32,353 bases of DNA from Anaerolineae bacterium (GCA_029932895.1 JAOZPF010000004.1:1-32353), one strand, 5' to 3'. Counted from the first letter of the stretch, positions 4,701 through 20,558 are shown. A program made the numbers and translations. Notes: generated by a model not told the origin, from the letters alone.

Positions 4701-5540
4701 ATGGCATTAAAAGGAAACCTGCGGGATTTTAGCACAACTCAGCTTCTGAACCTCGTCAACTTGGCGCGCAAGACCGGCACGCTCGCCATCGAGGGGCGAG
4801 ATGGACAGGTGCAGATGTGCTTCAAGGAGGGCAAGCTGATCTATGCCCGAATGAATGGGCAGGACGATCGGCTGGTAAGCATCCTCTTGAAAGCCGGCAA
4901 GATCACCGATGAACTCGCCCGTACCATTCGCGCCCGCTCCGACATCAAGGACGACCGCGAGTTGGGAGTGTTATTGAGCAATGCCGGCTATGTCACCCAG
5001 AGTGACATCGCCGATAGCGTCCGCAACTATACCCTGGGCATCGTCTACAAGCTCTTTACCTGGTCGGACGGCATGTTCCGCTTTGAACCCACCCTGCTCC
5101 CCATCCAGGGGCGCATCACAATTCCCATCAACCTGGAAAACGTGATCATGGAGGGCAGCCGCCGCCTCAAAGAGTGGGAGCGGCTGCAAGAAGAGCTGCC
5201 CAACCTGGACATGGCACTGCGCTTTACCGACCGCCCCGACGCGCGGCTGCGCACGATCAATCTGGCCGTCGAAGAATGGCGCGTGGTCTCTTTCATCAAC
5301 CCCCGCAACACGATCCGCCAGATCGCCCAGTACAACAATATGAGCGATTTTCAGATCCGGCGGATCGTCTATGGCCTCCTGCAGGCGGGACTGGTAGAGA
5401 TCGTCCAACCAGAAGGGGTGGAACCCAAGCCCGTGTCTGGTCCAGCAGGGGCACCGCCCCCCGCCCCAGTAGCCCGGAGGCGTCCTGCTGTCAAGCGGAG
5501 TGTCATTCGCAGGTTGATCGATCGCATTCGGGAGTTGTAA
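4701..5540 (+). CDS. DUF4388 / PATAN domain protein with Pro/Ala linker and basic C-terminal tail
   Basis: The N-terminus MALKGNLRDFSTTQLLNLVNLARKTGTLAIE is the typical DUF4388 opening. The C-terminus is PAGAPPPAPVARRRPAVKRSVIRRLIDRIREL. An in-frame TTG at 4680 is an alternative start. Confidence 0.8.
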   Translation: MALKGNLRDFSTTQLLNLVNLARKTGTLAIEGRDGQVQMCFKEGKLIYARMNGQDDRLVSILLKAGKITDELARTIRARSDIKDDRELGVLLSNAGYVTQSDIADSVRNYTLGIVYKLFTWSDGMFRFEPTLLPIQGRITIPINLENVIMEGSRRLKEWERLQEELPNLDMALRFTDRPDARLRTINLAVEEWRVVSFINPRNTIRQIAQYNNMSDFQIRRIVYGLLQAGLVEIVQPEGVEPKPVSGPAGAPPPAPVARRRPAVKRSVIRRLIDRIREL

Positions 5541-5543
5541 TCA

Positions 5544-6092
5544 ATGCAGACGCTCAAGATGGTGGTGACCGGCCCGTTTGCGGCGGGCAAAACGCAGTTC
5601 ATCCAAACCATTAGCGAGATCGACGTCGTCGCCACCGAGCGCAAGCTGAGCCGCGACGAGGAGCGGATCAAGGACCAGACCACTGTCGCGATGGACTTTG
5701 GACGGATCACCATCGACGAGGACCTGGTCCTCTACCTTTTCGGCACCCCAGGTCAGCGCCGCTTTGACTTTATGTGGGAGATTCTCTCCGAAGGGATGCT
5801 GGGCTTTGTCGTGGTGGTCGACAGCGTGCGGCCCGAGACATTCCGTGAAGCCCGCAGTATCCTGGATACGTTCCGCGCTTACGCCCCCACGCCGTACGTG
5901 GTGGCAGCCAACAAGCAGGACCAGGAGGACGCCTGGTCACCCGACGACCTGCGCATCGCTTTGCGCATCGCCTCAGAGATCAAGGTCCTCCCCTGCGTGG
6001 CGACGGATAAGGAAAGTGTCAAGCAGGTCCTGCTCGAATTGCTCTATGCCATACTAGAGATCATGGACGAGGAGGAAGAAGAGGCTGAATGA
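5544..6092 (+). CDS. Small Ras-like GTPase (COG2229 / CvnD-MglA-like ATP/GTP-binding protein)
   Basis: G1 is GPFAAGKT, G3 is LFGTPGQRRF, G4 is NKQD. The tail is acidic (DEEEEEAE). GGGAG lies 9 nt upstream, and the gene starts 3 nt after the DUF4388 stop. Confidence 0.85.
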   Translation: MQTLKMVVTGPFAAGKTQFIQTISEIDVVATERKLSRDEERIKDQTTVAMDFGRITIDEDLVLYLFGTPGQRRFDFMWEILSEGMLGFVVVVDSVRPETFREARSILDTFRAYAPTPYVVAANKQDQEDAWSPDDLRIALRIASEIKVLPCVATDKESVKQVLLELLYAILEIMDEEEEEAE

Positions 6093-6113
6093 TCCTCCTG
6101 ATGGCCCGAGGGG

Positions 6114-6174
6114 GCGGATGCCCGGTACCCGTCGTGCCTCAGGCCGTCCGGGGTCGGCGCGTCCGCTCTTTTTT
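6114..6174 (+). terminator. Candidate intrinsic terminator (long GC-rich structure plus T6)
   Basis: GCGGATGC (6114-6121) pairs with GCGTCCGC (6159-6166), with one G-U wobble, enclosing inner CCGG/CCGG pairing. The structure is followed by TCTTTTTT (T-run 6169-6174). Confidence 0.4.
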
Positions 6175-6235
6175 GACAGAGGCGTGTCATCAAGACCATC
6201 CGGGCGCGATAATTTGAGCACAGGGACATCAAGCA

Positions 6236-7021
6236 ATGAGTTCAATCGTCACTGACCGTGGAGTGGTGCATTACGAGGCGTATGGGCGCGGGTTGCCGGT
6301 GGTGCTGCTCCACTGCTGGATGGGCTCGTGGGGCTACTGGCTCAGCACGATGGAGGCCCTGAGCGACAAGTACAAGACCTATGCCTTGGACTTTTGGGGA
6401 TTTGGTGATTCAACCAAGCGGAGCGGACAATATAATGTCCCTGATTATGTGGAGATGGTGGTGCAGTTCATGGAACGGCTGGGATTGCAAAGGGCTCCCG
6501 TGATGGGCCATTCGATGGGAGGCACTGTCTCATTGAGCCTGACCCTGAACCACCCCGAACTGGTCCAGAAGGTGGCTGTCTCTGGCTCCCCTATCAACGG
6601 CGACGGGTTGTCGCTGCTGCTCAAATTGGCCGCCAAACGCTTTCTGGCCTCCATGGCCTACAACATCCCCGGCGTGCTGCCCATCGGCATTCGCCTCATC
6701 TCCCCCTTTTGGGCGCGAGACTGGCGGACCTGGTATGCGATGTTCGAGCAGGACCTCTCTCGTACCACCGCCGAATCATTTCACTACAGCATCGCCTCTC
6801 TGCGCAAAACCGACCTCACACCACGACTGCACGAAATCCGAGTGCCAGCGCTGGGAATCTATGGCCGCAAGGACCGCATCGTCAATCCCAACCAGGGCGC
6901 ATTGCTGACCGATAACGCCCCGCTGGGCACAGTGGCCTACTTTGAGAACTCGGGCCACTTTCCGATGTTGGACGAGCCGGAAAAGTTTCACCGCACACTG
7001 CGCGAATTCCTGGACCGGTAG
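6236..7021 (+). CDS. Alpha/beta hydrolase (intact Ser-Asp-His triad)
   Basis: HCWMGSW oxyanion region. The nucleophile elbow is GHSMGG, with Ser93 encoded by TCG 6512-6514. Also GRKDRIV and NSGHFPMLDEP. A GATAAT box sits at 6208-6213 upstream. Confidence 0.9.
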   Translation: MSSIVTDRGVVHYEAYGRGLPVVLLHCWMGSWGYWLSTMEALSDKYKTYALDFWGFGDSTKRSGQYNVPDYVEMVVQFMERLGLQRAPVMGHSMGGTVSLSLTLNHPELVQKVAVSGSPINGDGLSLLLKLAAKRFLASMAYNIPGVLPIGIRLISPFWARDWRTWYAMFEQDLSRTTAESFHYSIASLRKTDLTPRLHEIRVPALGIYGRKDRIVNPNQGALLTDNAPLGTVAYFENSGHFPMLDEPEKFHRTLREFLDR

Positions 7022-7026
7022 GAAGT

Positions 7027-7665
7027 ATGGAAAAAACACCAGAGATCGATGCACTCCAAGAGCCGTATTTCCCCAACAAAATGGGGCGAATTCTGCTGTT
7101 GGCGATGGAAGAGGTGATGGGGCGTAACGGTGTCAACGCCCTGTTGAACCTGACAAACTTGAGAAAATGGGCCGAATACCCGCCCAATAACTTTGACATG
7201 GAGTTCCCGTTCAGCGACATGTCCCGCCTGATCGGAGGGTTGGAGGAGGTGTACGGCACGCGCGGGGGACGGGGGCTGGCCCTCCGCGCCGGCCACGCCT
7301 GCTTCCGCTTTGGCGTCAAGGACCTGGGCCCTATGCTGGGCGTGGCCGACCTGGCCCTGCGCGTGATGCCGCTGACGATGAAGATCAAGATCGGCTTTGA
7401 GGTGCTGGCCGAGGTCTTTAACAAGTTCAGCGACCATCAGGTACGGCTGGAGGAGGAGGACGAGTCTTTTCTCTGGATCATTGAGCAATGCGGTGTCTGT
7501 TGGGGCCGAAAAGCGTCTGCCCCTACCTGCCACCTGGCCGTGGGCATTCTCCAGGAAGGGCTCTTCTGGGTTAGCGGAGGCCAGAGCTTTGAGGTCGAAG
7601 AGATCTCTTGCATCGCCGTGGGAGACGAGACCTGTACGATCCGAATTGACAAGGAACCGATCTGA
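7027..7665 (+). CDS. V4R (4-vinyl-reductase-type) small-molecule-binding domain protein
   Basis: The C-terminal block is EQCGVCWGRKASAPTCHLAVGILQEGLFWVSGGQSFEVEEISCIAVGDETCTIRI, typical of V4R domains. Starts 5 nt after the upstream stop. Confidence 0.75.
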   Translation: MEKTPEIDALQEPYFPNKMGRILLLAMEEVMGRNGVNALLNLTNLRKWAEYPPNNFDMEFPFSDMSRLIGGLEEVYGTRGGRGLALRAGHACFRFGVKDLGPMLGVADLALRVMPLTMKIKIGFEVLAEVFNKFSDHQVRLEEEDESFLWIIEQCGVCWGRKASAPTCHLAVGILQEGLFWVSGGQSFEVEEISCIAVGDETCTIRIDKEPI

Positions 7666-7688
7666 CGAAAAACTGAAGGCTGGTCAGA

Positions 7689-8951
7689 ATGCGGAAAATC
7701 GTTCTGCATGATCACAGGCCAATATATCCCTTTAATGAACCTGCCAGGGAACTGCGCATCCTCAACAAGCCACTCTGGCTCTACCAGCGCGATGTCCTGG
7801 CCCCCTACGTGGAGGGGCTTGAGCGGGAGGTGAACTCGTTCGACGAGATCGGACCGGAACGGGTAGAGACGCTGGTCTACCGGGGCAATCTGTTCTTTGA
7901 CCGGTATTTCATCCATGACTTTGTGACCAGGGCGCGGCGGCTGGGGAAATCATGCCAGGTCGCCTTCCCGTTGGACGACCAAGCCATCGTCAACCACGCC
8001 CTACCGCTGCAACGAACGATACGGCGCAAGGGCGATTATTACGTCACCGACATGTGGTACTTTCCCTACGGCATCGAGGAGACCGTCCGCCCCCTGGTGA
8101 TGCACACCGAACCGCGCGAGATGGGCTACTACCGCGTGCCCACCCACATGTCGGATGCGATGGGGGACCTCGTCTACCAGGTGCCCACCAAGGCTTTTGT
8201 GGCCATCGAATCCTGGGTCCACGTGGTGTTGGCCAATGTGATCTTTGGCGTCTTTGCCGAGGCGGCCCGCCTGGACCGGAATATCGAGGAGAGCATCGCC
8301 CTGCAGCTCAAACTGTTCTGGCGAGCGTTGCTGGAGCAGAGACAGGTCCTCTCCTCCTCGGCCGTCGTCAAGATCGGCAAGAACTGTTCCATCGACCCCA
8401 GTGCCATCATCCGCGGGCCGACGGTGATCGGGGACAATGTCGACATCGGCCCTGGTGCGGTGATCGACATCTGCGTCATCGGCAACAACGTCACCGTCTC
8501 CGACGGCTGCCAGTTGATGCTCAGCGTGATCAGCGACCGCTGTTTCCTTCCCTTTCGCGCTTCCCTGTTCGAGACCGTTCTGATGGAAGATACAATGGTC
8601 GCGCAGAACACCTGCCTGCAGTTGAGTTGCGTCGGCCGGAGCAGTTTCGTCGGCGCTGGCAGCACTTTTACCGACTTTAATCTGATACCGAAAGAGCTCC
8701 GCGCTATCCACGGCGACAGCCTGGAGGACACTGGACTGACCGTTCTCGGGGGGTGCGTGGGCCACCACTGCCGGATCGGTTCGGGTATGATTGTCTATCC
8801 GGCCCGCACCATCGAGTCGGATAGTATACTGGTGGCCTCGCCGGAGCGGAGAGTTATCGACAAGGACGTCTCCTACGAGGAGAGCGACATTTACAAAATA
8901 CCGAACGCCACAAGCGTTCACCCGCGTCTCTACCCGCGGCACGGAGAGTAG
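7689..8951 (+). CDS. GlmU-like protein: NTP_transf_4-like N-domain without a nucleotide-binding loop, plus a left-handed beta-helix (hexapeptide repeats)
   Basis: The N-terminus is MRKIVLHDHRPIYPFNEPARELRILNKPL and has no GxGxR loop. The C-terminal half has [LIV]-G-x4 periodicity: IGKNCSIDPSAIIRGPTVIGDNVDIGPGAVIDICVIGNNVTVSDGC. Confidence 0.7.
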   Translation: MRKIVLHDHRPIYPFNEPARELRILNKPLWLYQRDVLAPYVEGLEREVNSFDEIGPERVETLVYRGNLFFDRYFIHDFVTRARRLGKSCQVAFPLDDQAIVNHALPLQRTIRRKGDYYVTDMWYFPYGIEETVRPLVMHTEPREMGYYRVPTHMSDAMGDLVYQVPTKAFVAIESWVHVVLANVIFGVFAEAARLDRNIEESIALQLKLFWRALLEQRQVLSSSAVVKIGKNCSIDPSAIIRGPTVIGDNVDIGPGAVIDICVIGNNVTVSDGCQLMLSVISDRCFLPFRASLFETVLMEDTMVAQNTCLQLSCVGRSSFVGAGSTFTDFNLIPKELRAIHGDSLEDTGLTVLGGCVGHHCRIGSGMIVYPARTIESDSILVASPERRVIDKDVSYEESDIYKIPNATSVHPRLYPRHGE

Positions 8952-8995
8952 ACGAGGCCGGGGGGCGGCTAGGGGGCAGGAGAAGCACACCAGAG

Positions 8996-10090
8996 ATGGA
9001 CTCGTTTGCCTTTATCATTCACCCGTTGGACCCCAAGGCAGACGTAGCGCGGAAGTATCCGCGCCTGGCCCGGGTGTTGCCGGTGTGGGCCATCCACTTC
9101 CTCTCCCGCTTTTGGCCCCCTCTGCTTCTCTCCCACGTGACAGGCATCCGCTCGGCAGCGACGGGTCGCGAGGTGGAGGGCTGGCTCCTGGCATGCCCTT
9201 TCACCGCGCGCCGGATGCTCCAACTGCCCCCTCGCGTGGTCTATCGCAAGATCATCCAGACCGGGCGGCTGGCCGAACGACTGGGGGCCAAAATACTGGG
9301 CCTGGGGGCATACACATCCGTGGTGGGTGATGGCGGGCTGACGGTCGCCAGAGCGCTCGATATCCCGGTCACCACCGGCGATAGCTACACCGTCGCCCTG
9401 GCGGTTCGCGCCCTGCTGGAGGCAGGAAGCCGGATGTCCATCGCTCCCAGCCAGGCCACCGGGGCCGTGGTCGGCGCGAGCGGCGCTATCGGCTCGGCCT
9501 GCGCGCGGCTGCTCGCCCCCCAGGTGCGAGAGATGCTCCTGGTGGGACGCCGAATGGAGCGCCTGAAAAAAGTGCGGGATGAGGTGATGAACCTGACCGA
9601 CAAGCCGGTCGAGATCACGAGCGACGTGGCGGACATACACCGAGCCGACCTGATCGCCAGCGCCACCAGCGCCGGGAAAGCGATCATCCGCGCCTCCCAC
9701 CTCAAACCAGGCGCGGTGGTCTGCGATGTCGCCCGACCACGGGACGTAGCGGCCCAGGTGGCGCAGGAGCGCGGAGACGTGCTGGTGGTCGATGGGGGGC
9801 TGGCTGAGGTGCCGGGGCAGGTGAACTTTGGCTTTGATTATGGACTGCCTCCCCGCCTCACCTTCGGCTGTATGGCCGAGACGATGGCCCTGGCCCTCGA
9901 GGGCCGCTTCGAGGACTATACGGTGGGCAAGGACATAGATATCGACCGCGTGAAAGAGATCGAGCGGGTCGCGGAACGGCACGGTTTTCGGCTGGCCGGC
10001 CTGCGCTCCTTCGAGCATTTGTTGACAGAGGAACGGATTTCATCCGTCCGCCGCAAGGCGGCCCAGGTGGCCAAATCTGGCCCCGCCTAG
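8996..10090 (+). CDS. Acyl-ACP reductase (AAR)-like NAD(P)-dependent reductase (COG5322-type)
   Basis: Collinear by eye with my recollection of cyanobacterial AAR (not aligned or searched). Shared blocks are LGLGAYTSVV, TTGDSYT and the Rossmann segment ATGAVVGASGAIGSACARLL. The FGCMAETMALALEG block carries Cys292 (TGT 9869-9871), and the C-terminus is ERHGFRL. Confidence 0.75.
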   Translation: MDSFAFIIHPLDPKADVARKYPRLARVLPVWAIHFLSRFWPPLLLSHVTGIRSAATGREVEGWLLACPFTARRMLQLPPRVVYRKIIQTGRLAERLGAKILGLGAYTSVVGDGGLTVARALDIPVTTGDSYTVALAVRALLEAGSRMSIAPSQATGAVVGASGAIGSACARLLAPQVREMLLVGRRMERLKKVRDEVMNLTDKPVEITSDVADIHRADLIASATSAGKAIIRASHLKPGAVVCDVARPRDVAAQVAQERGDVLVVDGGLAEVPGQVNFGFDYGLPPRLTFGCMAETMALALEGRFEDYTVGKDIDIDRVKEIERVAERHGFRLAGLRSFEHLLTEERISSVRRKAAQVAKSGPA

Positions 10091-10106
10091 TTTGGGAGGT
10101 TACAGT

Positions 10107-11000
10107 ATGAGCGAGGGGAGAATCCTGGTCGTAGAAGACGATTTTGACATCTCGAACATGCTGCGCATCTACTTCCAGAGCCAGGGCTACGAGGTATCCG
10201 TAGCGCCACGGGGAAGCGACGCGCTTGAGATGACGCGCCAGCAACTACCCAACATCATCGTCCTCGATATTATGCTCCCGGATCTGGATGGGTATGATGT
10301 CTGCCGCCACCTGCGCAGCAACCTGCGTACCAAGCACATTCCCATCATCTTTCTCACCCAGAAGGACGAGCGGTCGGACAAAATCCACGGCCTCGAGCTG
10401 GGGGCGGATGATTATATCACCAAGCCCTTTGATGTCGAAGAACTAAAGCTGCGGGTCAAGAACGCTATGGCCAGAGCAGCCTACGAGAGCCTGACCAACC
10501 CTACCACCGGGCTTCCCAGTTCCAAACTCATCGAGGAGCAACTGCGCGAGCTGATGCGGCGGGATAACTGGGGTGTCCTCTACATCGGCATCGAGCGCCT
10601 GGAGCCCTTCAGCGAGGTCTATGGCTTTGTCGCCGCCGACGAGGTCCTGCGCTATACCGCCATGGTGTTGGGCGAGACGGTGGACGGGCTGGGCACCCCC
10701 AACGACTTTATCGGCCACGTTGGCGGGGACGACTTTCTCATCATCACCCGCGCCAACCTGGTCAAGCCGCTGACGGAGGACCTGCAGCGACGCTTTGCAG
10801 CCGGGGTTGGCACCCACTATGACTTCAAGGCCCGCCAGCAGGGGTACATCATCGTTCAGGACGACGAGGGAAACGAGCGCAAAGTGGGATTGATGGAGCT
10901 GGCAGTCGGCACTATCACCGACCAGGACGGCCCCTTCACCGACATCCGCGAGATCACCGAGGCAGCAGCTTCGGCGCGACGCGAGCGAAGCCGCGCCTGA
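10107..11000 (+). CDS. Response regulator: receiver plus degenerate GGDEF domain (GGDDF)
   Basis: The REC motifs are intact: VVEDD, IIVLDIMLPDLDG, IIFLTQ, DYITKPF. The GGDEF-like domain has TGLPSS instead of TGLxNR, HVGGDDF instead of GG(D/E)EF, and no RxxD I-site. GGGAGG lies 7 nt before ATG 10107. Confidence 0.85.
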   Translation: MSEGRILVVEDDFDISNMLRIYFQSQGYEVSVAPRGSDALEMTRQQLPNIIVLDIMLPDLDGYDVCRHLRSNLRTKHIPIIFLTQKDERSDKIHGLELGADDYITKPFDVEELKLRVKNAMARAAYESLTNPTTGLPSSKLIEEQLRELMRRDNWGVLYIGIERLEPFSEVYGFVAADEVLRYTAMVLGETVDGLGTPNDFIGHVGGDDFLIITRANLVKPLTEDLQRRFAAGVGTHYDFKARQQGYIIVQDDEGNERKVGLMELAVGTITDQDGPFTDIREITEAAASARRERSRA

Positions 11001-11040
11001 GAAAAACAGGAGAGCGTAGCGAGCAAGTACACAGGGCAAG

Positions 11041-14000
11041 ATGGAGATGCCAAACCTAGAACGGCCAAAGGGCATAGCTGCCCCGTTAGGGGGGATCACC
11101 CTCATCCTGGTCCTCGGCCTGGGCCTGAACCTGGTCCCGGTCGAGTGGCTGGGGCCGTTCTACCTGGCGCTCCCCTTCGCCGTCGTCGCCCTGACGCTCC
11201 TGACCGAGCGACGCGCCACGCTGGTAGGCGCCGCCATCGCTGTCCTCGCCCTGGCGCTCCGCCTCTTGCGGCCCGCTCCGACCCCCAGCATGGTCTCGGG
11301 CATCGTCGCCGGCCTGCTCTGCCTGGCAGCGGCCCTTTTCCTCCCCCCCCTCGGCGCCCTGCGGCAGGTGCGAAGAGGCGTCCGCCGCAAAACCAGGGGT
11401 AGACGATCATACCGCGACCTGGCGGAAGCGGTGCTGGACGAAGCGCTGCGGGTGACAGGGGCCGAGATGGGCGAAGTGTTGCTTCGTCTCAGTGATGAGG
11501 AACAGGTACAGCAGATTACAAGTCGGGGCCTGGGAGGAACATCGCTGGCCTCCTCTGCCTCCGGGCACGGGGACCGCGTCGTGACCGACCTGGTGCTGAG
11601 CGAGCAACGGCTTTGCCTCTTTTCTCCGCCCCCCACGACCGGAGCACAAACCGGGGCCGCGCTCCCCCTCCGCACCCAGGACCAGGTTCTGGGGCTCGTC
11701 TGTGTGGGCAGCCACGCCAAGCGCACTTTCAACTCGCGGGAACTGGCCCGCTTTTACGCTGTGGCGGAGGAAGGGGCGTCCGCCCTGGCATCGGTTATCC
11801 CCACCTCGCCCGGTCCCGCCCCCACACGGGAGATGGAGGAGCTGACCACCCTCGACGAGATCGGGCACGCCATCACTGCCAGCCTGGACCTGGGAACAAC
11901 TCTGAGAACGATTCTCGTCTCTACCCGCAAACTCATCCCCTTCGACCTGGGGGAGGTGACTCTGTGGGATTCGGCCAGCCACCGGCTGGTAAGCCGGGGA
12001 TCGCTCGACGCCGACGAGTACCACGCCGCGGTGGGCGACACATACCGCCTGAACGAGGGATACTCCGGCTGGCTGGCCCGTAATCGCCGCCCCCTCCTCA
12101 TCACCGATATTCCCAACTACCGGGAGGTGCGACCCAAGCTGGACCGCCCTGACTCTCCCCTCCGCTCTTTCCTCGGCCTCCCGCTGGAGAACCGGGGCGA
12201 GTTCATCGGTACGCTAGAGTTGGTCAGCTATCAACTGGATGCCTTTTCCGAACATGACCTGGACCTCTTGCAGACCATCGGCACTTATGCCGCCGCGGCC
12301 ATTGAGCACGCCCACCTCTACGAAGAGGCCCGGCGCCGGACGTTGGAACTGGATTCCCTCTCGCGCGTCTCGGCGGCGGTGAGTTCCACACTGGACCTGG
12401 ATCAGGTCCTCCAGACCATTGCCACCTCGGCCCTGGAGGTGGTCGGCTGCAATCGCTCGGCGATCTTTGTGTTGGAGGAGGAGAGCGACACGTTGCGCCT
12501 GGCGGCGAGCCAGGGCCTGAGTAAAACGTATGTGGACAAGTCGCAGGCCCTCCCCATCGAGGCCGGTGGTCGTACCCACGCCGTCGCCACCAGACAGCCG
12601 GTACTGGTGGAGGACATTACCGCCGATCCAGGATTGCGCCGCCTGGCCCCTCTGGCCGAGGGAGAGGGAGTCGTCGCCTTTGCCGACATCCCGCTGCGAG
12701 TGGGGAAACAGGTGATCGGCATGCTCTCGGCCTTTTTCACCCAGCCCCACCGTTTTACCGATGTGGAGCGGGGGCTGCTGACCTCCTTTGCCGACCAGGC
12801 AGCGATCGCTATCGAGAACGCCCGTCTCTATGCCAACACCGACCGGGAACTGCGGCGTCAGGCAGAAGCGCTGAGCGGATTGCAGGTGGTGGCGCAGGAG
12901 GTGAGTGTCACTTTCGACCAGGAGCATATCCTGCGCATTGTGCTGGAAGAGGCTATGCACCTCAGCCGCGCCGACCACTGCGCCATCCTCCTCTACGATG
13001 AGCCATCGGACCACTGGACGATGGGCTTTTGCGCTGGCTACTTGGAAGAGGAACAGGCCGCCCTGCGGCAGCGGTTGTCGAACCTGCCCGACGAGGACAG
13101 TTTCGCCGAAATGTGCCGCACCGGCAAGACCCTCCACCTGGACGACGCGACGGAGGAGGGCCGGGAGGTGGTGGGGCGGAGCGATGTACGCTCGGCGCTC
13201 CTGGTCCCCATCCGCTACGGGGAACAGACCGCCGGCGCCATCGTCCTGGGCAGCCGGAGCGTTGGCTGCTTCGACGACGTCGTCCGCCGTTTTGTCGAGA
13301 CGCTCGCCGCCCAGGCAGCCATCGCCATCAGCAACGCCCGTCGCTATCAGGAGCAGAGCGACCGCAACACCCTCCTGCGCCAGCGGGCTGACCAGTTGTC
13401 CAGCGTCTTGGAGGTCAGCCGGGCCGTCCGCTCCGACGAGCCTCTGGAAGATGTATTGGAAGAGATCGCCTATGCCATCCAGGAGAGCGTGGGCTTTGAC
13501 CTGGTGCTTGTCAGCATGCTGGAGGGAGACCCGCCCCACCTACGCCGCGTCGCGGCCGCTGGCGTCCCCCTGCCGGTGCTGGAGCAGATGAAGCAAGTCC
13601 TCCAGCCCTGGAAATCGCTGGAAGTGGTGATCCGCGACGAGTTCAAGATCAGCCAAAGCTATTACATCCCCGCCGAGGAACAGGCCCGCTGGCGCGACAC
13701 CCTGCACACCTACGAGCAAGAAAATGTAGAGACCGCCAGAGAGCCGGGCCGCTGGCACCCACAGGACATGCTCCTCACGCCGCTGCTCGGTTCCGGCGGC
13801 GAGATTCAGGGTATCCTCTCGGTGGACGAACCTCGCGATGGCCGAGTGCCTGGCTACCCCACCATCGAGGCACTGGAGGTATTCGCCGCCCAGGCTGCTG
13901 CCTACATCGAGAACGCACGTCTGCTCAAAGCCCTGCAGGGCCAGTTGGACGCTCTCTCCGTGTTCAACGAGATCAACCGCTCTGTGGCAGCCAAGCTCGA

Positions 14001-17000
14001 CCTGGACGAGGTGCTACGGACGGTCGTCGGCTCGGCGGCCCGCCTGATCGACTGTCAGGGCAGCGTTATCTTTCTCGAAGAAGAGAGGACCGGTCAGTAC
14101 GTGGCCCGGCAGACCTATGGTCACGACCTGGCGGCGTTGAAAAAGAGCGTCTTCGCCCCCGGCGAGGGGCTGGTGGGCAGCGTCGCCGAGAGCGGGATGC
14201 CCATCTCGGTGCGGGACGTGGAGGAGGAGACAGGCGGTGAGCCTGACTATGTGCAGGAGGGGGCAGCGATCCTCGTCCCCCTCAGCATTGGCGGAAGGGT
14301 GGTGGGCGTGCTGACCGCCGACCGTGACTACAGCGAGCCCTTCAGCCCGGTGGATGTGGCTACCCTCACCGCCCTGGCCGACCAAGTGGCCGTAGCCGTG
14401 CAGAACGCCCAGCTGTTCGCAGAGACAACCCGCCGCAGCCAGGAACTTTCCACGCTGCTGGAGGCGGGCAGCGCCCTCTCGTCCACCCTGGACCTGAACT
14501 GGGTGCTGCAGGCCCTCGGCGACCGGCTGCTGGAGAGCGCGCAGGCCGATAGTTGCCTCATCTCGGAGTGGGACCGCGACGAGAACCGGGTGACGGTGGT
14601 GTGGGAGATGGGCGACCCCTCCGTCCGCCCGCTGCTCGGCACTACCTACCTGGCCTCTCAGCGTCCAGATGTCGTGGAAGTGCTTCTCGTCCAGGAGCCT
14701 ATGCTTCTCGCGCTAGACAACCCCCAGATCAGCAATGCCGCCCGCGCTCACCTGGAGCAGAGAGAAGCCCACACCGTCCTGCTGCTCCCTATGGTCGCCC
14801 GTGGGCAGACGGTGGGGCTGGTGGAATTGGAACGGCGCGGCGAGCGCGGCCCCTTCGCCCCAGGCGAGGTCCGCCTAGCCGAGGCGCTGGCGAGCCAGGC
14901 CGCCGCCGCAATGGCGAACGCGCGGCTGTACGAAGAAATCCGCCGCTTTAGCGCTGAACTGGAGGAGCGGGTCGAGAAACGGACCCACGAGCTGGCCCAG
15001 GCCCTCCAAGACCTGACGGTCGAGCGGGACCGGATGGAAACGCTCTACCGCATCACAGCCGAGGTCTCGGCCAGTTTGGACCTGGACCACGTGTTGAACC
15101 GGACGCTGGAGCTGGTGGTGGAGGCGACCGGCGCGGAGCGCGGCGTGACCCTGTTGGACGATCCGGAGACGGAGCAATTGTTCTACCGTGCCGGCGTGGG
15201 ATTGCCGGTGCACCTCCCACCCGGAGGGCGCCCCTCCCGCTTCCAGCACGGCGATGGGCTGGTGGGCTGGGTGATCGAGCATAACGAGTCCGTAGTGATC
15301 CCCGATCTGCGCGAGGAACCACGCTGGGTGCCCAGCGAGATGGAGGACCCGGTGCACCGGGCCTGCTTGGCTGTCCCATTAAGCAGGGCAGGGGAGGTTC
15401 AGGGGGCGTTACTGCTCTTTTCCTCCACCCCTGGTCTCTTTACCGAGGATCACCTGCGGCTGACCGAAGCGGCGGCGACCCAGATAGCCAATGCCGCTGG
15501 CAACGCCGTGCTCTACAACCTGATCCGCGAACAGGCCGAGCGGCTGGGCACGATGCTCAAGGCCCAACAGGTCGAGGCCGCCAAGAGCCAGGCCATCCTG
15601 GAGGGAGTCGCCGACGGGGTCGTGGTAGCCGACGCCAAAAACCAGATCGTCCTCTTTAACGCCGCCGCCGAGCGAATCTTGGAGATCCCCCGCGAGCAGG
15701 CCCTGGGCCGGACGACGCGGGAGATGATCGGGTTGTACGGCGGCGAAGGCCGGACCTGGCTGGAAGCGATCGAGGATTGGACAGCCCACCCCACCACCGA
15801 CCGCACTCCCGAGGACTTTGTCACCGAGCGGCTGGAGCTGGACAACCAGGTCGTGAGCGTCCACGCCGCCCCGGTTATCATGGGCTCCGAGTACCTGGGC
15901 ACTGTCTCTGTCTTCCGCGACATCACCGCCGTGGTGGAGGCAGACCGGGCCAAGAGCGAGTTCGTCTCCACGGTCTCCCACGAGCTGCGCACACCGATGA
16001 CCTCCATCAAGGGGTACGCCGACCTGCTGTTGATGGGGGCGGTGGGCGAGTTGGGCGATCAGCAGCTCCACTTTCTCTCCATAATCCGCAACAACGCCGA
16101 CCGGCTGACCGCCCTGGTCAACGACCTACTGGACATCTCCCGCATCGAGACCGGGCGAGTGGAACTGGACCTGAAGGCAATCCACATCCACGATACCGTG
16201 AACCAGGTCGTCAACACCCTTCTGGGCCGGGCGGAGGGGAAAGGGCTGACCCTCACCTCCGACGTGGCGGAGGACCTCCCCGCCGTCTGGGGTGATAGCG
16301 CCCGCCTGGTCCAAATCCTGACCAACCTGGTGGGCAATGCGATCTACTACACGCCGCCGGGCGGCTCGGTCCACGTCTCCGCCCGCCCCGTGGGCGATGT
16401 ATTGGAGATCTCGGTGACCGACACCGGCATCGGCATCGCCAAGGAGGACCAGGCCAAGATATTTGGCCGTTTCTTCCGCGTCGACGACCCCCTGGTGCAA
16501 GAGACGCCAGGCACTGGCCTCGGCCTGCCGATCACCGCCTCCCTGATCGAGATGCACGGCGGCAAGATTTGGGTCGAGAGCGAGTTGGGGGAGGGCAGTG
16601 TCTTTACCTTTACCATCCCCCTGGCCCGCGCGGTGCAGGCGACGGCTCAGGCCCGCGAGGCGGGTGTGCAGCAACTCTTGGTGGTCGAGGACGACCCGGA
16701 TATCGCCAACCTGATCCGCGCTCAGTTGGAGGAGGCGGGATACCGGGCGACCGCCGTGGGACGGGGAGAGGATGCACTCCAGGCAGCAAGGGAACTACTC
16801 CCGGCCCTCATCACACTGGACATCCGCCTGCCTGATATGGACGGGTTCGAGGTGCTGAAACGATTGAAGCACGACCCCGAGACCGCCGATATTCCCGTGG
16901 TCATTGTCTCCGTGGTGGAGGACAAGGAAAAGGGATTCCGGCTGGGAGCGCTGGATTATGTGGGCAAGCCAATCGACGAGGAATCGCTGCTGGGCGCGGT

Positions 17001-17421
17001 GCGCGGTATCCTCGAATCCCATGGCCTCGTCCTCGTCGTGGACGACGACCGGGACACGCTCTCTATGGTTCGCGAAGCACTGCGGCGACACGGCTTTCAC
17101 GTCCGCACCACCGCCCGGGGGCGTCGCGCCCTCCAGGTAGCCAGGGACCTGCGGCCCGCCCTGGTGCTGCTCGACCTAAAGTTGCGGGATGTAGACGGTT
17201 ACCACGTGTTGCGACAACTCAAATCCGACCCCCGCACGCGCGCTATACCCGTCGTCATTATGACGGGTAGCCTGACTGAGGAGGAGGTCAAGCAACAGCG
17301 AGCGTTGACGCTGGGTGCGGCCCGTTTTCTGACCAAACCGTTTGCAATAGAGGAGCTGGTTGACGAAATCTCGGCCGTCCTGCAGCATGCCGCCGAGAAG
17401 CAGGTCGCGCAACCCGCCTAG
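11041..17421 (+). CDS. Membrane-anchored multi-GAF / PAS hybrid sensor histidine kinase with two C-terminal receiver domains (2126 aa)
   Basis: Domains in order: N-terminal hydrophobic helices; 8 successive GAF-like modules, each ending in an AxxAAxAIxNAxLY-type helix; a PAS domain (VADGVVVADAKNQIVLFNAAAERIL). The kinase core follows: H-box SHELRTP (His1647, CAC 15979-15981), N-box NLVGNAIYYT, G-boxes DTGIGI and GTGLGL. Last come REC1 (Asp1927) and REC2 (Asp2045). Confidence 0.95.
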   Translation: MEMPNLERPKGIAAPLGGITLILVLGLGLNLVPVEWLGPFYLALPFAVVALTLLTERRATLVGAAIAVLALALRLLRPAPTPSMVSGIVAGLLCLAAALFLPPLGALRQVRRGVRRKTRGRRSYRDLAEAVLDEALRVTGAEMGEVLLRLSDEEQVQQITSRGLGGTSLASSASGHGDRVVTDLVLSEQRLCLFSPPPTTGAQTGAALPLRTQDQVLGLVCVGSHAKRTFNSRELARFYAVAEEGASALASVIPTSPGPAPTREMEELTTLDEIGHAITASLDLGTTLRTILVSTRKLIPFDLGEVTLWDSASHRLVSRGSLDADEYHAAVGDTYRLNEGYSGWLARNRRPLLITDIPNYREVRPKLDRPDSPLRSFLGLPLENRGEFIGTLELVSYQLDAFSEHDLDLLQTIGTYAAAAIEHAHLYEEARRRTLELDSLSRVSAAVSSTLDLDQVLQTIATSALEVVGCNRSAIFVLEEESDTLRLAASQGLSKTYVDKSQALPIEAGGRTHAVATRQPVLVEDITADPGLRRLAPLAEGEGVVAFADIPLRVGKQVIGMLSAFFTQPHRFTDVERGLLTSFADQAAIAIENARLYANTDRELRRQAEALSGLQVVAQEVSVTFDQEHILRIVLEEAMHLSRADHCAILLYDEPSDHWTMGFCAGYLEEEQAALRQRLSNLPDEDSFAEMCRTGKTLHLDDATEEGREVVGRSDVRSALLVPIRYGEQTAGAIVLGSRSVGCFDDVVRRFVETLAAQAAIAISNARRYQEQSDRNTLLRQRADQLSSVLEVSRAVRSDEPLEDVLEEIAYAIQESVGFDLVLVSMLEGDPPHLRRVAAAGVPLPVLEQMKQVLQPWKSLEVVIRDEFKISQSYYIPAEEQARWRDTLHTYEQENVETAREPGRWHPQDMLLTPLLGSGGEIQGILSVDEPRDGRVPGYPTIEALEVFAAQAAAYIENARLLKALQGQLDALSVFNEINRSVAAKLDLDEVLRTVVGSAARLIDCQGSVIFLEEERTGQYVARQTYGHDLAALKKSVFAPGEGLVGSVAESGMPISVRDVEEETGGEPDYVQEGAAILVPLSIGGRVVGVLTADRDYSEPFSPVDVATLTALADQVAVAVQNAQLFAETTRRSQELSTLLEAGSALSSTLDLNWVLQALGDRLLESAQADSCLISEWDRDENRVTVVWEMGDPSVRPLLGTTYLASQRPDVVEVLLVQEPMLLALDNPQISNAARAHLEQREAHTVLLLPMVARGQTVGLVELERRGERGPFAPGEVRLAEALASQAAAAMANARLYEEIRRFSAELEERVEKRTHELAQALQDLTVERDRMETLYRITAEVSASLDLDHVLNRTLELVVEATGAERGVTLLDDPETEQLFYRAGVGLPVHLPPGGRPSRFQHGDGLVGWVIEHNESVVIPDLREEPRWVPSEMEDPVHRACLAVPLSRAGEVQGALLLFSSTPGLFTEDHLRLTEAAATQIANAAGNAVLYNLIREQAERLGTMLKAQQVEAAKSQAILEGVADGVVVADAKNQIVLFNAAAERILEIPREQALGRTTREMIGLYGGEGRTWLEAIEDWTAHPTTDRTPEDFVTERLELDNQVVSVHAAPVIMGSEYLGTVSVFRDITAVVEADRAKSEFVSTVSHELRTPMTSIKGYADLLLMGAVGELGDQQLHFLSIIRNNADRLTALVNDLLDISRIETGRVELDLKAIHIHDTVNQVVNTLLGRAEGKGLTLTSDVAEDLPAVWGDSARLVQILTNLVGNAIYYTPPGGSVHVSARPVGDVLEISVTDTGIGIAKEDQAKIFGRFFRVDDPLVQETPGTGLGLPITASLIEMHGGKIWVESELGEGSVFTFTIPLARAVQATAQAREAGVQQLLVVEDDPDIANLIRAQLEEAGYRATAVGRGEDALQAARELLPALITLDIRLPDMDGFEVLKRLKHDPETADIPVVIVSVVEDKEKGFRLGALDYVGKPIDEESLLGAVRGILESHGLVLVVDDDRDTLSMVREALRRHGFHVRTTARGRRALQVARDLRPALVLLDLKLRDVDGYHVLRQLKSDPRTRAIPVVIMTGSLTEEEVKQQRALTLGAARFLTKPFAIEELVDEISAVLQHAAEKQVAQPA

Positions 17422-17432
17422 GAAGATGACCC

Positions 17433-17813
17433 ATGACCAAAATTCTTGTGGCTGAAGATGAAAAGGACATTCGCGAACTGATCGCTTTCACGCTCCGCTT
17501 TGCCGACCTCGAAGTCGTCCTGGCGACGAATGGCGAAGAATCCGTGCAGATGGCACGGGCGGAGCAACCGGATTTGATCCTGATGGATGTGCGGATGCCC
17601 AAGATGACGGGATACGAGGCCTGTCGCCGCTTGAAAGAGATTCCAGAGACGGCCGAGATTCCAGTTGTTTTTCTCTCGGCCAAGGGGCAGGATGCCGAGG
17701 TTCAACAGGGTCTGGATTCAGGTGCGACCGAGTACATACTCAAACCTTTTGCGCCCGACGAGTTGATCGTCCAGGTACGGAGGATTCTGGAAAAATCAGG
17801 GCGCGCCAAGTGA
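17433..17813 (+). CDS. Single-domain CheY-like response regulator
   Basis: VAEDE, DLILMDVRMPKMTG, VVFLSAKG and EYILKPF. Starts 11 nt after the kinase stop. Confidence 0.9.
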   Translation: MTKILVAEDEKDIRELIAFTLRFADLEVVLATNGEESVQMARAEQPDLILMDVRMPKMTGYEACRRLKEIPETAEIPVVFLSAKGQDAEVQQGLDSGATEYILKPFAPDELIVQVRRILEKSGRAK

Positions 17814-17835
17814 TAGAGGCGTCGGTGATCGGGCA

Positions 17836-18630
17836 ATGAGCGCGATAATCATTGAGAATGGGCTGACTCACTACGAGGCCATTGGCCGCGGTAGGCCGGT
17901 GATCCTGCTGCACGGGTGGTTGGGCTCTTGGCGGTACTGGGTACCGACTATGGACGACCTCTCGGATCGATTCCGCGCCTATGCTATGGATTTGTGGGGA
18001 TTTGGTGATTCGGACCGTCGCCGGGATAGTTATACTATCTCCTCCTACGTCCTCCTATTGCAGCGGTTTATGGACGAGATGGGGATCATCCGTGCCCCAT
18101 TGGTCGGGCACGCGCTGGGCGGGGTGGTCGCCCTCCACTTTGCCGCACAGATGCCGGAGCGGGTGGAGCAGGTGATGGCGGTCAGCACGCCGCTGGCGGG
18201 CACGGCAGTGATGCCTTCCCTCTCCAATTTTTCTGGCAACGGCGACGACGCGGTGACACGTGTGTTGGGCCGCCGGCAAGCCGCCACCTACCCCGAAGTG
18301 CAGTTGGAAGCCAGCAAGGCTGACGCCTCTGCTATTGTGAACAGCGTGCGGGCCGTGTTGCAGGACGACTTGCGCGCCCTCATCCCCGCTCTTGAGATCC
18401 CCGTCCTGCTGGTCCACGGTCAGCGCGACCCCGTCATCCAGCCACCCGACGAGGCCTGGCTGGAGGAAATGGCGGATAACGCACGGGCGATCTATCTGGA
18501 CGAGTCACGCCACTTTCCTATGCTCGACGAGACCCACAAGTTCAACAAGCTGTTGCGGCTGTTCTTGGAGGTCAAGGACGACCTGGACAGCCTGGAACTG
18601 AAGAAGGAGTGGCGGCGGCGAATGCGGTAG
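17836..18630 (+). CDS. Alpha/beta-hydrolase-fold protein, paralog of 6236-7021, with nucleophile Ser replaced by Ala (GHALGG)
   Basis: The N-terminal two-thirds is clearly alignable with the first operon gene by eye (HYEA-GRG-P--LLH-W-GSW-YW...WGFGDS). Codon 93 is GCG (18112-18114), giving Ala. Asp (GQRDPV) and His (SRHFPMLDE) are retained. Confidence 0.9.
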   Translation: MSAIIIENGLTHYEAIGRGRPVILLHGWLGSWRYWVPTMDDLSDRFRAYAMDLWGFGDSDRRRDSYTISSYVLLLQRFMDEMGIIRAPLVGHALGGVVALHFAAQMPERVEQVMAVSTPLAGTAVMPSLSNFSGNGDDAVTRVLGRRQAATYPEVQLEASKADASAIVNSVRAVLQDDLRALIPALEIPVLLVHGQRDPVIQPPDEAWLEEMADNARAIYLDESRHFPMLDETHKFNKLLRLFLEVKDDLDSLELKKEWRRRMR

Positions 18631-18683: not shown

Positions 18684-20558
18684 TCAGGGTGCCCAGGAAA
18701 TGCGCTGGTGCTGCCAATCGGGCATATCCGTGCCTAGGTTGATGATCTCGTGCAAATCCTCCCCATCGGGGCGCATCAGGTAGATACCCCAGTCCCCATC
18801 CCGGTTGGAGAGGAACGCCAGATGGGAACCATCGGGTGCCCAGGCGGGGAGCGCCTCGACCGCCGGACCGTCGACCAGCGCCTGCACCCCGCCAGAGATG
18901 TCCAGCAAGTACAGGTCCCAACTGCCGGCCTGGTCCGACATGTAGGCCAGCGAGCTGCCATTGGGATGCCAGTGGAGGCCGGTATCATCGTTGCTGGCCG
19001 TGAGCCGGGCGGGAGGCTGGTCGTCGTCCGGGTTGTCGACAAAGATGCCGCAAGTGACCCCGTCGCCCTCGCAGCCGGTCCAGGCAAGGAGGCCAGAGGG
19101 ACCCCACGCCGGTCCCCTGCCTGGGGCGTGGAGCAGCGGCTCTTCACTTCCGTCCGTGCGGGCGATATAGATGTACCCATCCGCCGAGCCGTAGGCGTAG
19201 CGGCTGCCATCTGGCGAGAAGGTGGGCAGGGAGGCTCCCGGATCGATGCGCAAAGTGAGTGGCTGCCCGCCGGGCTGGACCATGGAGAGGCCGGAGGCGA
19301 GGTTGTTACGATAGATCAGCCAGTCGCTGCCCCACTGCCAACAGGGCTGGTCGCCCCCACCAGCCATCCGCACCAGTTCACCGCTGGCAAGGAGAGCGTT
19401 GATATCGTACAGGCCGGTGGCGCTGTTGTAGGCCGGGTAGGCCAGCCGGCCCACGGTAAAGCCCGGCACAACGACCGTGCCGGTGAGCGGTACTGTGCCG
19501 GTGAGGGGGGGGATCGGAGTCGGCGTCGCCGCCGCGCAGACCTCGGCTGCCTCCGCCCGCTTTGCGTCCACCGTGGGATCGTTCAGCAGCTCCAGCGCCC
19601 GCGCGTACTGGGCCGCGGCGGGACACATCTCGCCCTGTTCATACCACAGATCGCCATAGGCCACGCGGGCCTGATAGAGCTGAGTGGAGACGTCCTTATA
19701 GCCCGGCGCGAGCTCGTACAGCTCCTGGAACCACTGGATGCAGTGCTCCCAATCCACACCCCAATAGCCGCGAGCGGTCATATACCGCTGCGCCAGGGCC
19801 AGTTGTAGGAGCGTGTCCGAATCCAACGGGCGAATCTGACGCGCCTGGTCCAGGTAAAAGATACCTTCCTCAAACCGGTCGTCCTCCAGGTAGAGCATCC
19901 CCTGGTTGTAGAGGCTGGTAAAGAGCTTTTCCTCCACCTCGTCCGGCTCGTATTCGGGGTCAAAGACACGCAGTTGGCTCAAAAGCCGGGCGGCTGTCTC
20001 CCAGTCCTCCTGCTCGTAGGCGGCTATGCCCTCGGCGTACAACTCGCCAGCGATATCCTCCGCTGGCTGGGCGGTGGGGGTGGGACGGGTCGAGAGGCGC
20101 ACCTGGGCCTCGGCCAATCCCTGCCCCGCCAGCGGGTGGTTGGGGTTGAGTTCGAGGGCATAGTTGAACTCGGCGATAGCCAGTTCATACTCCCCAGCAT
20201 CCAGCCGGGCCAGCCCCTGCTGGTAGTGCTCGTCGGCGAGAGCGATCCGCCGCTCCAGACGCTGTTGTTCGCCGCTGCGGACCCCGGTGTAGCCAGCGAC
20301 CACGACGGCGGCAGCCAGCAGGCACACGAAAACCAGCAGCGCCAACAGGACAGTGCGCACGCGCTGCCATACGGTGGGGTGTGCGGGACGTCCTTGCTGA
20401 GGGACGGCAAGAGGCATGGTCTCCTCGAGAGCCGGGTTCCTCCTGGCGCGACGGCCCCACCGTCGTTTCAGAGGCTGGGTCTGTTCGATGTTGGCACCGC
20501 ATTGGGGGCAGAGGGAGAGCGGCTCTGGTACCTCATACCCGCACTCGGGACAGCGCAT
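18684..20558 (-). CDS. Zinc-ribbon / single-TM / TPR / TolB-like PD40 beta-propeller protein
   Basis: The N-terminus MRCPECGYEVPEPLSLCPQCG is a zinc ribbon. The TM helix is LLALLVFVCLLAAAVVVAGY. TPR-like repeats follow. The C-terminus has PD40 repeats (SPDGSRYAY, HPNGSSLAYMSDQAGSWDLYLL, APDGSHLAFLSNRDGDWGIYLM). Confidence 0.85.
   Translation of the reverse strand: MRCPECGYEVPEPLSLCPQCGANIEQTQPLKRRWGRRARRNPALEETMPLAVPQQGRPAHPTVWQRVRTVLLALLVFVCLLAAAVVVAGYTGVRSGEQQRLERRIALADEHYQQGLARLDAGEYELAIAEFNYALELNPNHPLAGQGLAEAQVRLSTRPTPTAQPAEDIAGELYAEGIAAYEQEDWETAARLLSQLRVFDPEYEPDEVEEKLFTSLYNQGMLYLEDDRFEEGIFYLDQARQIRPLDSDTLLQLALAQRYMTARGYWGVDWEHCIQWFQELYELAPGYKDVSTQLYQARVAYGDLWYEQGEMCPAAAQYARALELLNDPTVDAKRAEAAEVCAAATPTPIPPLTGTVPLTGTVVVPGFTVGRLAYPAYNSATGLYDINALLASGELVRMAGGGDQPCWQWGSDWLIYRNNLASGLSMVQPGGQPLTLRIDPGASLPTFSPDGSRYAYGSADGYIYIARTDGSEEPLLHAPGRGPAWGPSGLLAWTGCEGDGVTCGIFVDNPDDDQPPARLTASNDDTGLHWHPNGSSLAYMSDQAGSWDLYLLDISGGVQALVDGPAVEALPAWAPDGSHLAFLSNRDGDWGIYLMRPDGEDLHEIINLGTDMPDWQHQRISWAP

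Follow-up and report, generated by a model that had tools for sequence, protein, structure and literature searches.

A class-wide conserved signalling cluster of Anaerolineae combining a thioester reductase, a GAF-array kinase and a Ras-like GTPase

Why would a reductase of a predicted aldehyde-forming type be encoded among histidine-kinase, receiver and small-GTPase genes? The question is posed by a stretch of DNA of 32,353 nucleotides (nt) from an Anaerolineae bacterium (GCA_029932895.1 JAOZPF010000004.1:1-32353; hereafter the window, with positions counted from its first letter). An initial annotation, made by reading this DNA alone, described eight of its genes (g1 to g8) as an operon in which a hydrolase, a V4R protein, a beta-helix protein and the reductase make, modify or bind a lipid-derived small molecule, read by a GAF/PAS kinase and relayed to receiver domains. 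Comparing the locus with its counterparts in other genomes, we find that a PATAN-protein gene and a small-GTPase gene outside that block belong to the conserved unit, which has ten genes, not eight, and that these form a signalling cluster whose domains are known but whose combination, conserved throughout the class, is undescribed. The cluster joins His-Asp phosphotransfer and a Ras-like GTPase, which are rarely linked in bacteria, with a predicted aldehyde-forming enzyme and two likely ligand receptors. In anaerobic digesters, activated sludge, sediments and hot springs, the Anaerolineae rank with the most abundant filamentous bacteria, and to our knowledge almost nothing is known of their sensing and behaviour.

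Gene order and its conservation

A scan of species-representative genomes seeded with the g4 alignment gave at least 559 matches, of which the best 80 correspond to 80 loci, the window's own and 79 others. Gene order was read from tblastn and blastp comparisons of the window proteins with these loci, and presence was counted only where the flank was sufficient (Table 1, which also gives the letter used for each gene). The consensus order P-G-h-V-L-A-r-K-c-H recurs across the 79 other species-level genomes. All but one of the best 80 loci are labelled Chloroflexota, the exception (L030) being a metagenome-assembled genome (MAG) labelled Syntrophothermus, and among the names given are Anaerolineales, Thermoflexales, Promineifilaceae, Ardenticatenaceae and Villigracilis. 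The cluster was recovered under at least four Anaerolineae lineage names. It occurs in MAGs labelled Anaerolinea thermophila, and at least its first half is present in A. thermolimosa; as there are cultured relatives, the question of function can be put to the test. Across several orders, at protein identities of 53-60%, the genes keep their order and strand, and the cluster proteins are 53-90% identical overall, the GTPase being the most conserved (74-90%). As a control, seven window genes flanking the cluster recur in 0-1 of the 79 others. The initial annotation had held that scattered orthologs in related genomes would speak against a common system; the cluster genes instead stay together in Chloroflexota/Anaerolineae genomes whereas their neighbours do not, and the retention of such identity while the neighbours change completely suggests an important function. 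Counts for K, c and H are underestimates, because the kinase gene reaches up to 8.9 kb and the flanks stop at 10 kb.

Table 1 Features of the cluster, with positions in the window unless another locus is named, and their occurrence among the compared loci
Feature (letter)	Position	Strand	Evidence	Occurrence
PATAN/DUF4388 protein (P)	4701-5540	+	279 aa from ATG 4701; open reading frame (ORF) opens at TTG 4680; Pfam DUF4388 9.4e-27	Just upstream, 52/60
Small Ras-superfamily GTPase, MglA/CvnD type (G)	5544-6092	+	Pfam ATP_bind_1 8.7e-19, Arf, Ras	52/60
GC-rich long hairpin, then T6	~6108-6174	+	Between GTPase gene and g1	
Sigma-70-like promoter match, GTGTCA-18-GATAAT	6184-6213	+	9/12 positions; consensus match only	
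g1, alpha/beta hydrolase (h)	6236-7021	+	Pfam Abhydrolase_1 4.8e-30	52/60
g2, stand-alone V4R/H-NOX/TRAPPC3-fold protein (V)	7027-7665	+	Pfam V4R 31.0 bits, cut-off 31	42/60
g3, nucleotidyltransferase-like N-domain and left-handed beta-helix (LbH), GlmU/ST0452/GMPPA architecture (L)	7689-8951	+	Pfam Hexapep 1.2e-13	59/60
g4, AAR/PigE-N-type NAD(P)H-dependent thioester reductase (A)	8996-10090	+	NCBIfam PigE N-terminus 3.6e-66, AAR 4.4e-29	
g5, REC and degenerate GGDEF-like domain (r)	10107-11000	+	Pfam REC 1.6e-29; partial GGDEF 8e-8	Follows g4 in 69/73
g6, hybrid histidine kinase (K)	11041-17421	+	Pfam: 8 GAF, PAS, HisKA, HATPase, 2 REC	Kinase core downstream in 45/55
g7, single-domain CheY-like receiver (c)	17433-17813	+	Pfam REC 4.8e-30	43/55
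g8, alpha/beta-hydrolase paralog (H)	17836-18630	+	Pfam; ~35% identical to g1	43/55
YccF protein and 233-252-aa protein upstream of the LbH gene	L022 7386-8486; L053 4156-5295; L070 5225-6480			

Gene content varies among the loci by module. About ten loci lack V alone (PGhLArKcH), and at least eight with at least 5.5 kb upstream lack P, G, h and V together, keeping L-A-r-K(-c-H) with unrelated genes upstream. The initial annotation had asked whether the hydrolase/V4R/beta-helix/reductase quartet recurs in the company of GAF kinases: recurrence with the kinase is borne out, whereas the quartet does not behave as a unit, and its reading as one enzymatic set fails where h and V are lost with P and G while L-A-r-K persist. 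The pair L-A is the hub of the cluster and L-A-r-K its most constant core; h-V travels with P-G, and r-K-c-H is the phosphotransfer block. In none of the 80 loci were two cluster proteins found joined in a Rosetta-stone fusion.

Other arrangements deserve mention for their own sake. In one lineage without P-G-h-V, the LbH gene is repeatedly preceded, directly upstream, by genes for a YccF membrane protein and for an unannotated protein 233-252 amino acids (aa) long; the other upstream genes of LArKcH-only loci encode YccF, LRR or ABC-2 proteins. A hidden V4R protein or hydrolase in such loci was ruled out, as the 233-aa protein upstream of g3 (L022, L053, L070) is unrelated to both. In the variant L023, the pseudo-hydrolase gene (12257) comes directly after the gene for the REC and degenerate GGDEF protein, with no kinase between, and two V4R paralogs lie downstream on the opposite strand (14956 and 15579, -).

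Within the window, the eight annotated coding sequences were recovered in the ORF list, all on the + strand and separated, just as annotated, by 5, 23, 44, 16, 40, 11 and 22 nt (an alternative start for g5 is TTG 10092). Across the loci the median gaps are -2 nt for h-V, 5 for L-A, 8 for K-c, 18 for c-H, 21 for V-L, 26 for P-G, 41 for G-h and 56 for A-r; g2 is likely to be translationally coupled to g1, and g4 to g3. Terminator-like matches within the block are at chance level (8 vs 7.7 expected), in line with the annotated lack of an internal terminator signal, and the convergent gene reported downstream was found at 18684-20558 on the - strand, encoding TPR and PD40 repeats (Pfam).

The upstream edge proved less simple. 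A hairpin followed by six Ts had been taken as the boundary of the block, and the element itself is real, with a minimum free energy of -45.2 kcal/mol, although z is only -1.98 against GC-rich shuffles (the sequence is 60% GC). The closest relative, L002, has a homologous hairpin with T4 in the same place after its GTPase gene (about 1160-1225). By contrast, the gap between the GTPase and hydrolase genes is at most 60 nt in 27 of 49 other loci, which leaves no room for such a structure. Being common to the window and L002, the hairpin is a feature of this lineage, and the conserved cluster does not end there but continues upstream into the GTPase and PATAN genes; the hairpin is possibly a terminator or attenuator here, and may split the cluster into two transcripts. 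The GATAAT box noted earlier was recovered as the end of a promoter-like match. The 143-nt spacer between the GTPase and hydrolase genes gave no Rfam match at gathering score and no tRNAs, ruling out a riboswitch or other RNA leader of a kind held in Rfam.

Elsewhere in the window, 28879-30463 holds a gene for a PEP-synthetase-regulatory-type kinase/pyrophosphorylase (PF03618, 29642-30463, +) adjoining a short divergent ORF (28879-29511, -) with a pyruvate-kinase C-terminal-like domain as its sole domain. In the region 25798-27563, two long ORFs on the + strand share ~320 nt. One, 25798-26772, has no Pfam match and may be spurious, and the other, 26451-27563, encodes a GT4 glycosyltransferase; the region has a strongly negative GC skew (-0.20).

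Enzymes, pseudo-enzymes and sensors

The annotation of g4 as an AAR-like reductase with Cys292 is well supported. Its PDB matches include PigE (4ppm, 1.5e-42) and AAR (6jzq, 1.8e-23); Cys292, in FGCMAET, aligns with the catalytic Cys of AAR (FACFAEA in 6jzq) and is invariant in 15 orthologs together with G160, G163 and G166 of the motif GATGxIG, so that both the catalytic Cys motif and the Rossmann GxGxxG of AAR are present. The scores nevertheless place it outside either named function, at 101.9 bits against the AAR model TIGR04058 (cut-off 449.7) and 224 bits against the PigE model NF053554 (cut-off 850), where it covers model positions 51-359 of 837 and has no aminotransferase domain. The N-domain of PigE reduces a thioester to an aldehyde (PMC8341465), and g4 is predicted to be a reductase of the same Cys-thioester, aldehyde-forming type. 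Pfam results for the window contain no aldehyde-deformylating oxygenase or ferritin-like domain.

The wider reductase family comprises 906 clusters at E <= 1e-30 in an exhaustive search of 50%-identity representatives, and many relatives of g4 are longer fusions (P0390, P0405, P0419, P0460 and P0374 among them). Fusion classes include a SRPBCC/START-like lipid-binding domain with the reductase; PilZ, SRPBCC and reductase (P0390); GNAT, aminotransferase and reductase; and a large class of ~700 aa with an unannotated 300-aa N-domain. The repeated pairing with SRPBCC fits a lipid-like substrate, with the separate V4R protein possibly filling the SRPBCC role in the present cluster, and it is clear from the PilZ fusion that members of the family can be connected to second-messenger signalling. 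Databases give the cluster proteins other names: the reductase (COG5322) appears as 'shikimate dehydrogenase' or 'amino acid dehydrogenase', the LbH protein as 'multidrug transporter' and the V4R protein as '4-vinyl reductase'. The unannotated domain of ~300 aa also occurs free-standing, at 1607-2512 of locus L060, 8 kb upstream of the cluster there.

The partner of the reductase, g3, had been annotated as an NTP_transf_4-like/beta-helix protein. Its beta-helix is confirmed by Pfam, whereas no NTP_transferase family matched the N-terminus in Pfam at E <= 0.01; there, the nucleotidyltransferase-like fold emerges from an AlphaFold model only (confident over residues 1-145), which Foldseek matches to ST0452, RmlA, GMPPB and CobY at E about 1e-4. 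Sugar-1-phosphate nucleotidyltransferases of the RmlA type carry an N-terminal Gly-rich G-x-G-T-R-(L)-x-P loop. Where these enzymes have GxGTR, the g3 consensus reads IILRDRRxIxPF, and with neither signature loop nor Pfam match g3 shares the fold, and not the hallmarks, of a sugar-1-phosphate nucleotidyltransferase or GlmU. The N-domain appears to be a nucleotidyltransferase domain without catalytic function, comparable to those of GMPPA or eIF2B gamma/epsilon.

The two hydrolases that bracket the block have diverged. As annotated, g1 is an alpha/beta hydrolase with Ser93, and its complete catalytic triad, Ser93-Asp213-His241, is invariant in 56 of 56 orthologs; its PDB matches indicate a generic esterase/MCP-hydrolase similarity. 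The last gene, g8, has indeed lost the nucleophile, with Ala93 in the window while Asp198 and His226 are kept. In 41 sequences the corresponding column holds Gly (27), Ala (6), Asn (3), Asp (3) and Ser (2), so that 39 lack the Ser of GxSxG, and g8 looks like a conserved pseudo-hydrolase.

The V4R annotation of g2 also stands, albeit with a Pfam score exactly at the cut-off, because the fold and a cluster of Cys residues agree with V4R (PF02830). An AF2 model (pLDDT 88) describes one full-length cavity domain of H-NOX/PoxR/TRAPPC3 type, with Foldseek matches to H-NOX (TM score 0.6-0.7), PoxR, MopR, Bet3 and MJ1460. The invariant Cys155, 158, 168, 195 and 203 probably form a Zn site, as predicted from their conservation; this is the Zn-Cys arrangement known from PoxR and Asgard TRAPPC3, which hold phenols or palmitate in their cavities, and the V4R/H-NOX-type fold more generally binds phenols, palmitate or haem (PMC10933270). 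H-NOX proteins are marked by a proximal His and the haem-propionate motif YxSxR; for g2, Pfam gave no HNOB match at E <= 0.01, and the agreement with H-NOX is one of overall fold.

Upstream, the GTPase retains its motifs (GPFAAGKT, TTVAMDFG, GTPGQ and NKQD), and the PDB entries that match it best are those of an Asgard Arf and of MglA (3t12), the latter a weak match (4e-6). The PATAN protein has a conserved C-terminal region of ~60 aa, and the gene call in L001 begins at the position equal to 4701. Pfam found no MglB/Roadblock protein among the window proteins, and thus no MglA/MglB polarity module. MglA-family GTPases adjoining PATAN genes have been noted earlier, in MglA groups 1 and 5 (PMC4316618), and the type IV pilus motor of Synechocystis is a binding partner of PATAN regulators (bioRxiv 10.1101/2021.06.11.447907).

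The phosphotransfer proteins g5 to g7 bear out their annotation as a REC protein with a degenerate GGDEF domain, an 8xGAF-PAS hybrid kinase with two receivers and a CheY-like REC. The receiver of g5 is intact, with Asp54 present. Its second domain carries GGDDF in the window and, among 67 orthologs, GGDNF in 39 and GGDDF in 12, the catalytic Glu thus being systematically absent; with no GG[DE]EF and a Pfam match over model positions 5-90 of 161, it does not resemble an active diguanylate cyclase. To the domains of g6 we add an N-terminal membrane anchor, absent from the initial annotation, of about four hydrophobic segments at aa 10-105 (window 11041-11360) with no periplasmic domain. Most kinase orthologs have at least one N-terminal hydrophobic segment, and their lengths of ~1250-2965 aa indicate a variable GAF number. 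A bilin-binding, light-sensing GAF array was ruled out, as the kinase is without a Cys-His motif and has 11 Cys in 2126 aa.

Taken together, catalytic residues or motifs are kept in g1, g4 and the GTPase and lost in the g3 N-domain (its loop), g5 (its GGDEF motif) and g8 (its nucleophile), and these last three look non-catalytic.

What the cluster may do

We favour signalling by a self-made hydrophobic aldehyde as the best single reading of the cluster, while holding it tentatively and at somewhat less than an even chance. The reductase, acting with its beta-helix partner and perhaps supplied by the hydrolase in the manner of LuxD and LuxC, would convert an acyl thioester into a hydrophobic aldehyde through Cys292. 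The V4R cavity and/or the dead hydrolase would then hold the product or its acyl precursor and present it to the cytoplasmic GAF array, and the kinase would phosphorylate its own receivers, the CheY-like protein and the REC and degenerate GGDEF protein. As Pfam and NCBIfam revealed no DNA-binding or transcription-factor receiver in the cluster, output would be by protein-protein contact, most plausibly via the PATAN/GTPase switch. Such switches steer type IV pilus or polarity machinery in other bacteria. Were this aldehyde reading true, it would define a new class of bacterial signal and give a function to the large, misannotated COG5322 family and its LbH partner.

Several points weigh against it. 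Every step past the identity of the domains is inferred from sequence. The loci without V, and those without P, G, h and V, described above, have lost parts that the pathway would use, and since the V4R protein is absent from some otherwise complete loci it cannot be an obligatory receptor. Three loci (L013, L044 and L056) have P-G-h-L-A without adjacent r-K, the kinase of L044 lying further downstream. The gene list published for A. thermolimosa resembles these loci: GAP05454-GAP05460 include DUF4388, GTPase, hydrolase and GlmU-like genes beside a cd1 nitrite-reductase (nirS)-like gene, with GAP05457 and GAP05459 unlisted (PMC8756737 appendix), which implies that the first half of the cluster can adjoin something other than a kinase. 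The cluster encodes no acyl-activating enzyme or carrier protein. The acyltransferase residues of g3, for which GlmU/LpxA/LpxD-type enzymes have a catalytic His/Asn in C-terminal turns of the helix, could not be placed, as PDB profile alignments reach the first beta-helix turns only, and its residues 310-400 are modelled poorly (pLDDT < 50). No cluster protein matched an HPt family in Pfam, so no obvious multistep relay leads to the free receivers, and the kinase would have to pass phosphate to REC directly or by way of an unlinked HPt. Finally, in this window the strong hairpin with its U6 separates the GTPase from the hydrolase.

Three pseudo-enzyme parts in one cluster (the g3 N-domain, g5 and g8) would also fit a different arrangement, in which enzyme-like proteins bind ordinary metabolites, dock on the kinase or GTPase and signal the state of metabolism or of the membrane. 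The bound compound could be acyl-ACP/CoA, NAD(P)H, a nucleotide-sugar or a membrane lipid, and a similar role has been proposed for CvnE and CvnF in the actinobacterial G-protein system (AGPS). The kinase combines transmembrane segments and cytoplasmic GAF domains with no extracytoplasmic sensor, as do AGPS kinases that work with accessory proteins (PMC13343842), and the fold of the V4R protein is that of stand-alone H-NOX sensors. The invariant NAD(P)H motif and Cys of g4 and the unbroken triad of g1, however, argue for turnover over binding, and the kinase itself already brings eight GAF domains. We therefore regard accessory sensing as a credible but rather doubtful alternative.

The flow of information could also run the other way, with the GAF/PAS kinase sensing another cue and controlling the reductase/beta-helix pair and the hydrolases post-translationally, the goal being lipid or envelope remodelling through aldehyde, alcohol, wax or ether-lipid precursors. 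Here the constancy of the L-A-r-K core counts in favour, as do the lack of a transcription-factor receiver, since single REC and REC-degenerate-GGDEF proteins typically bind target proteins, and the fusion to the PilZ c-di-GMP receptor in P0390, by which the reductase family can be a regulated target. Such an output role remains unlikely in our view: the cluster has no decarbonylase, alcohol dehydrogenase or aminotransferase, nor an acyltransferase with placed residues, to take up the aldehyde, and the V4R ligand-binding protein, the pseudo-hydrolase and the PATAN/GTPase link would all go unexplained.

Returning to the aldehyde reading, a bolder form of it, which we consider distinctly unlikely, is a lipid-aldehyde-gated pathway of 'G-protein plus two-component' kind, in which an AAR-type enzyme would make the ligand, the V4R protein and dead hydrolase would be its receptors, and the signal would split between the kinase and a GTPase/PATAN branch setting filament polarity, pili or adhesion. 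If true, it would provide the first aldehyde-based intra- or intercellular bacterial signal of its kind, and a bacterial parallel to the lipid-loaded TRAPP-type regulation of small GTPases.

Could the genes be mere neighbours, two or three independent operons (P-G, h-V, L-A and r-K-c-H) kept adjacent by vertical inheritance? The hairpin and promoter-like site between GTPase and hydrolase, in the window and L002, would suit such a view, and sub-modules can occur apart, as in the variant loci and the published A. thermolimosa gene list. Against this, order and strand persist at the identities given above across several orders while the seven flanking genes are lost, and most junctions are at most 60 nt, making independence improbable. 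Least credible of all is a small natural-product cluster with prodiginine- or tambjamine-like aldehyde chemistry and its own regulators, for although the best named match of g4 is the PigE thioester-reductase domain, the cluster has no aminotransferase domain, polyketide synthase or non-ribosomal peptide synthetase, carrier protein, condensation enzyme or oxidase, is a class-wide single conserved copy and not patchy, and devotes more than half of its coding length to signalling protein. An anti-phage defence system was ruled out as well, PADLOC giving weak receiver-domain cross-matches only.

Comparison with known systems

Full-text literature searches found no published description of the cluster and no match to a characterised pathway, which agrees with the initial annotation's statement that it knew of no system with this composition. 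Its parts, by contrast, have recognisable relatives. The reductase shares with AAR and PigE its fold, its NAD(P)H motif, an aligned catalytic Cys and a predicted thioester-to-aldehyde reaction, whereas it lies far under both equivalog cut-offs, sits in a signalling cluster and has no aldehyde-deformylating oxygenase or aminotransferase as partner. In LuxC/LuxD/LuxE, an acyl-transferase of alpha/beta-hydrolase fold works with a Cys-thioester reductase to free a fatty aldehyde. The likeness of the cluster to this system is an analogy of logic only. The comparison of g4 covered AAR and PigE alone, LuxC is an aldehyde-dehydrogenase-type protein, and the cluster has neither a LuxE-type synthetase nor a luciferase. 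With GMPPA and eIF2B gamma/epsilon, g3 has in common a two-domain architecture and the apparent loss of the catalytic loop; identity is very low (10-13%), and the partner of g3 is a reductase and not a paralogous active enzyme.

Two comparisons concern the putative receptors. The parallel drawn in the initial annotation with RsbQ-RsbP and D14/KAI2 did not survive closer inspection, as specific kinship was ruled out for g1 and g8 alike, whose best 60 PDB matches are generic esterases, MCP hydrolases and epoxide hydrolases only. These systems do place an alpha/beta-hydrolase-fold protein within a signalling module, and g8 resembles a non-catalytic receptor; no PP2C or F-box partner occurs in the cluster, however, and the nucleophile kept in D14 and RsbQ is lost in g8, so that the analogy, as far as the sequences indicate, extends to the logic alone. 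H-NOX sensors control kinases encoded nearby. In H-NOX/HnoK systems, as here, a free-standing sensor, with which g2 shares its overall fold, stands beside a kinase, a single REC and a REC with a degenerate cyclic-di-GMP domain. In contrast to H-NOX, g2 carries the V4R Cys cluster, a putative Zn site, and apparently not the haem-binding signature; it is absent from a subset of loci, and its presence follows that of the GTPase genes, not that of the kinase.

On the side of the GTPase, a PATAN domain beside an MglA-family GTPase recalls PatA/PixG/PixE and MglA and suggests an output to polarity or type IV pili, although the PATAN protein of the cluster is without a receiver domain, MglB is lacking and the window holds no pilus genes.

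The closest known kind is the conservon, or AGPS, which likewise unites a kinase with a Ras-like GTPase and with accessory proteins for sensing (PMC13343842, PMC4316618) and whose kinase also has no extracytoplasmic sensor domain. The cluster departs from it in that no cluster protein is a Roadblock/MglB (CvnB) or DUF742 (CvnC) protein, so that it is not itself a conservon, in the PATAN protein adjoining the GTPase, and in a kinase that is a true hybrid with receivers of its own and two free receiver proteins besides. The AGPS accessory proteins CvnE (a P450) and CvnF (a GAF protein) are thought to serve as sensory inputs (PMC13343842); the accessory set here consists instead of hydrolases, a V4R protein, an LbH protein and a reductase, and belongs to another phylum, so that, if its members do act as accessory sensors, the logic of AGPS would extend to a second phylum.

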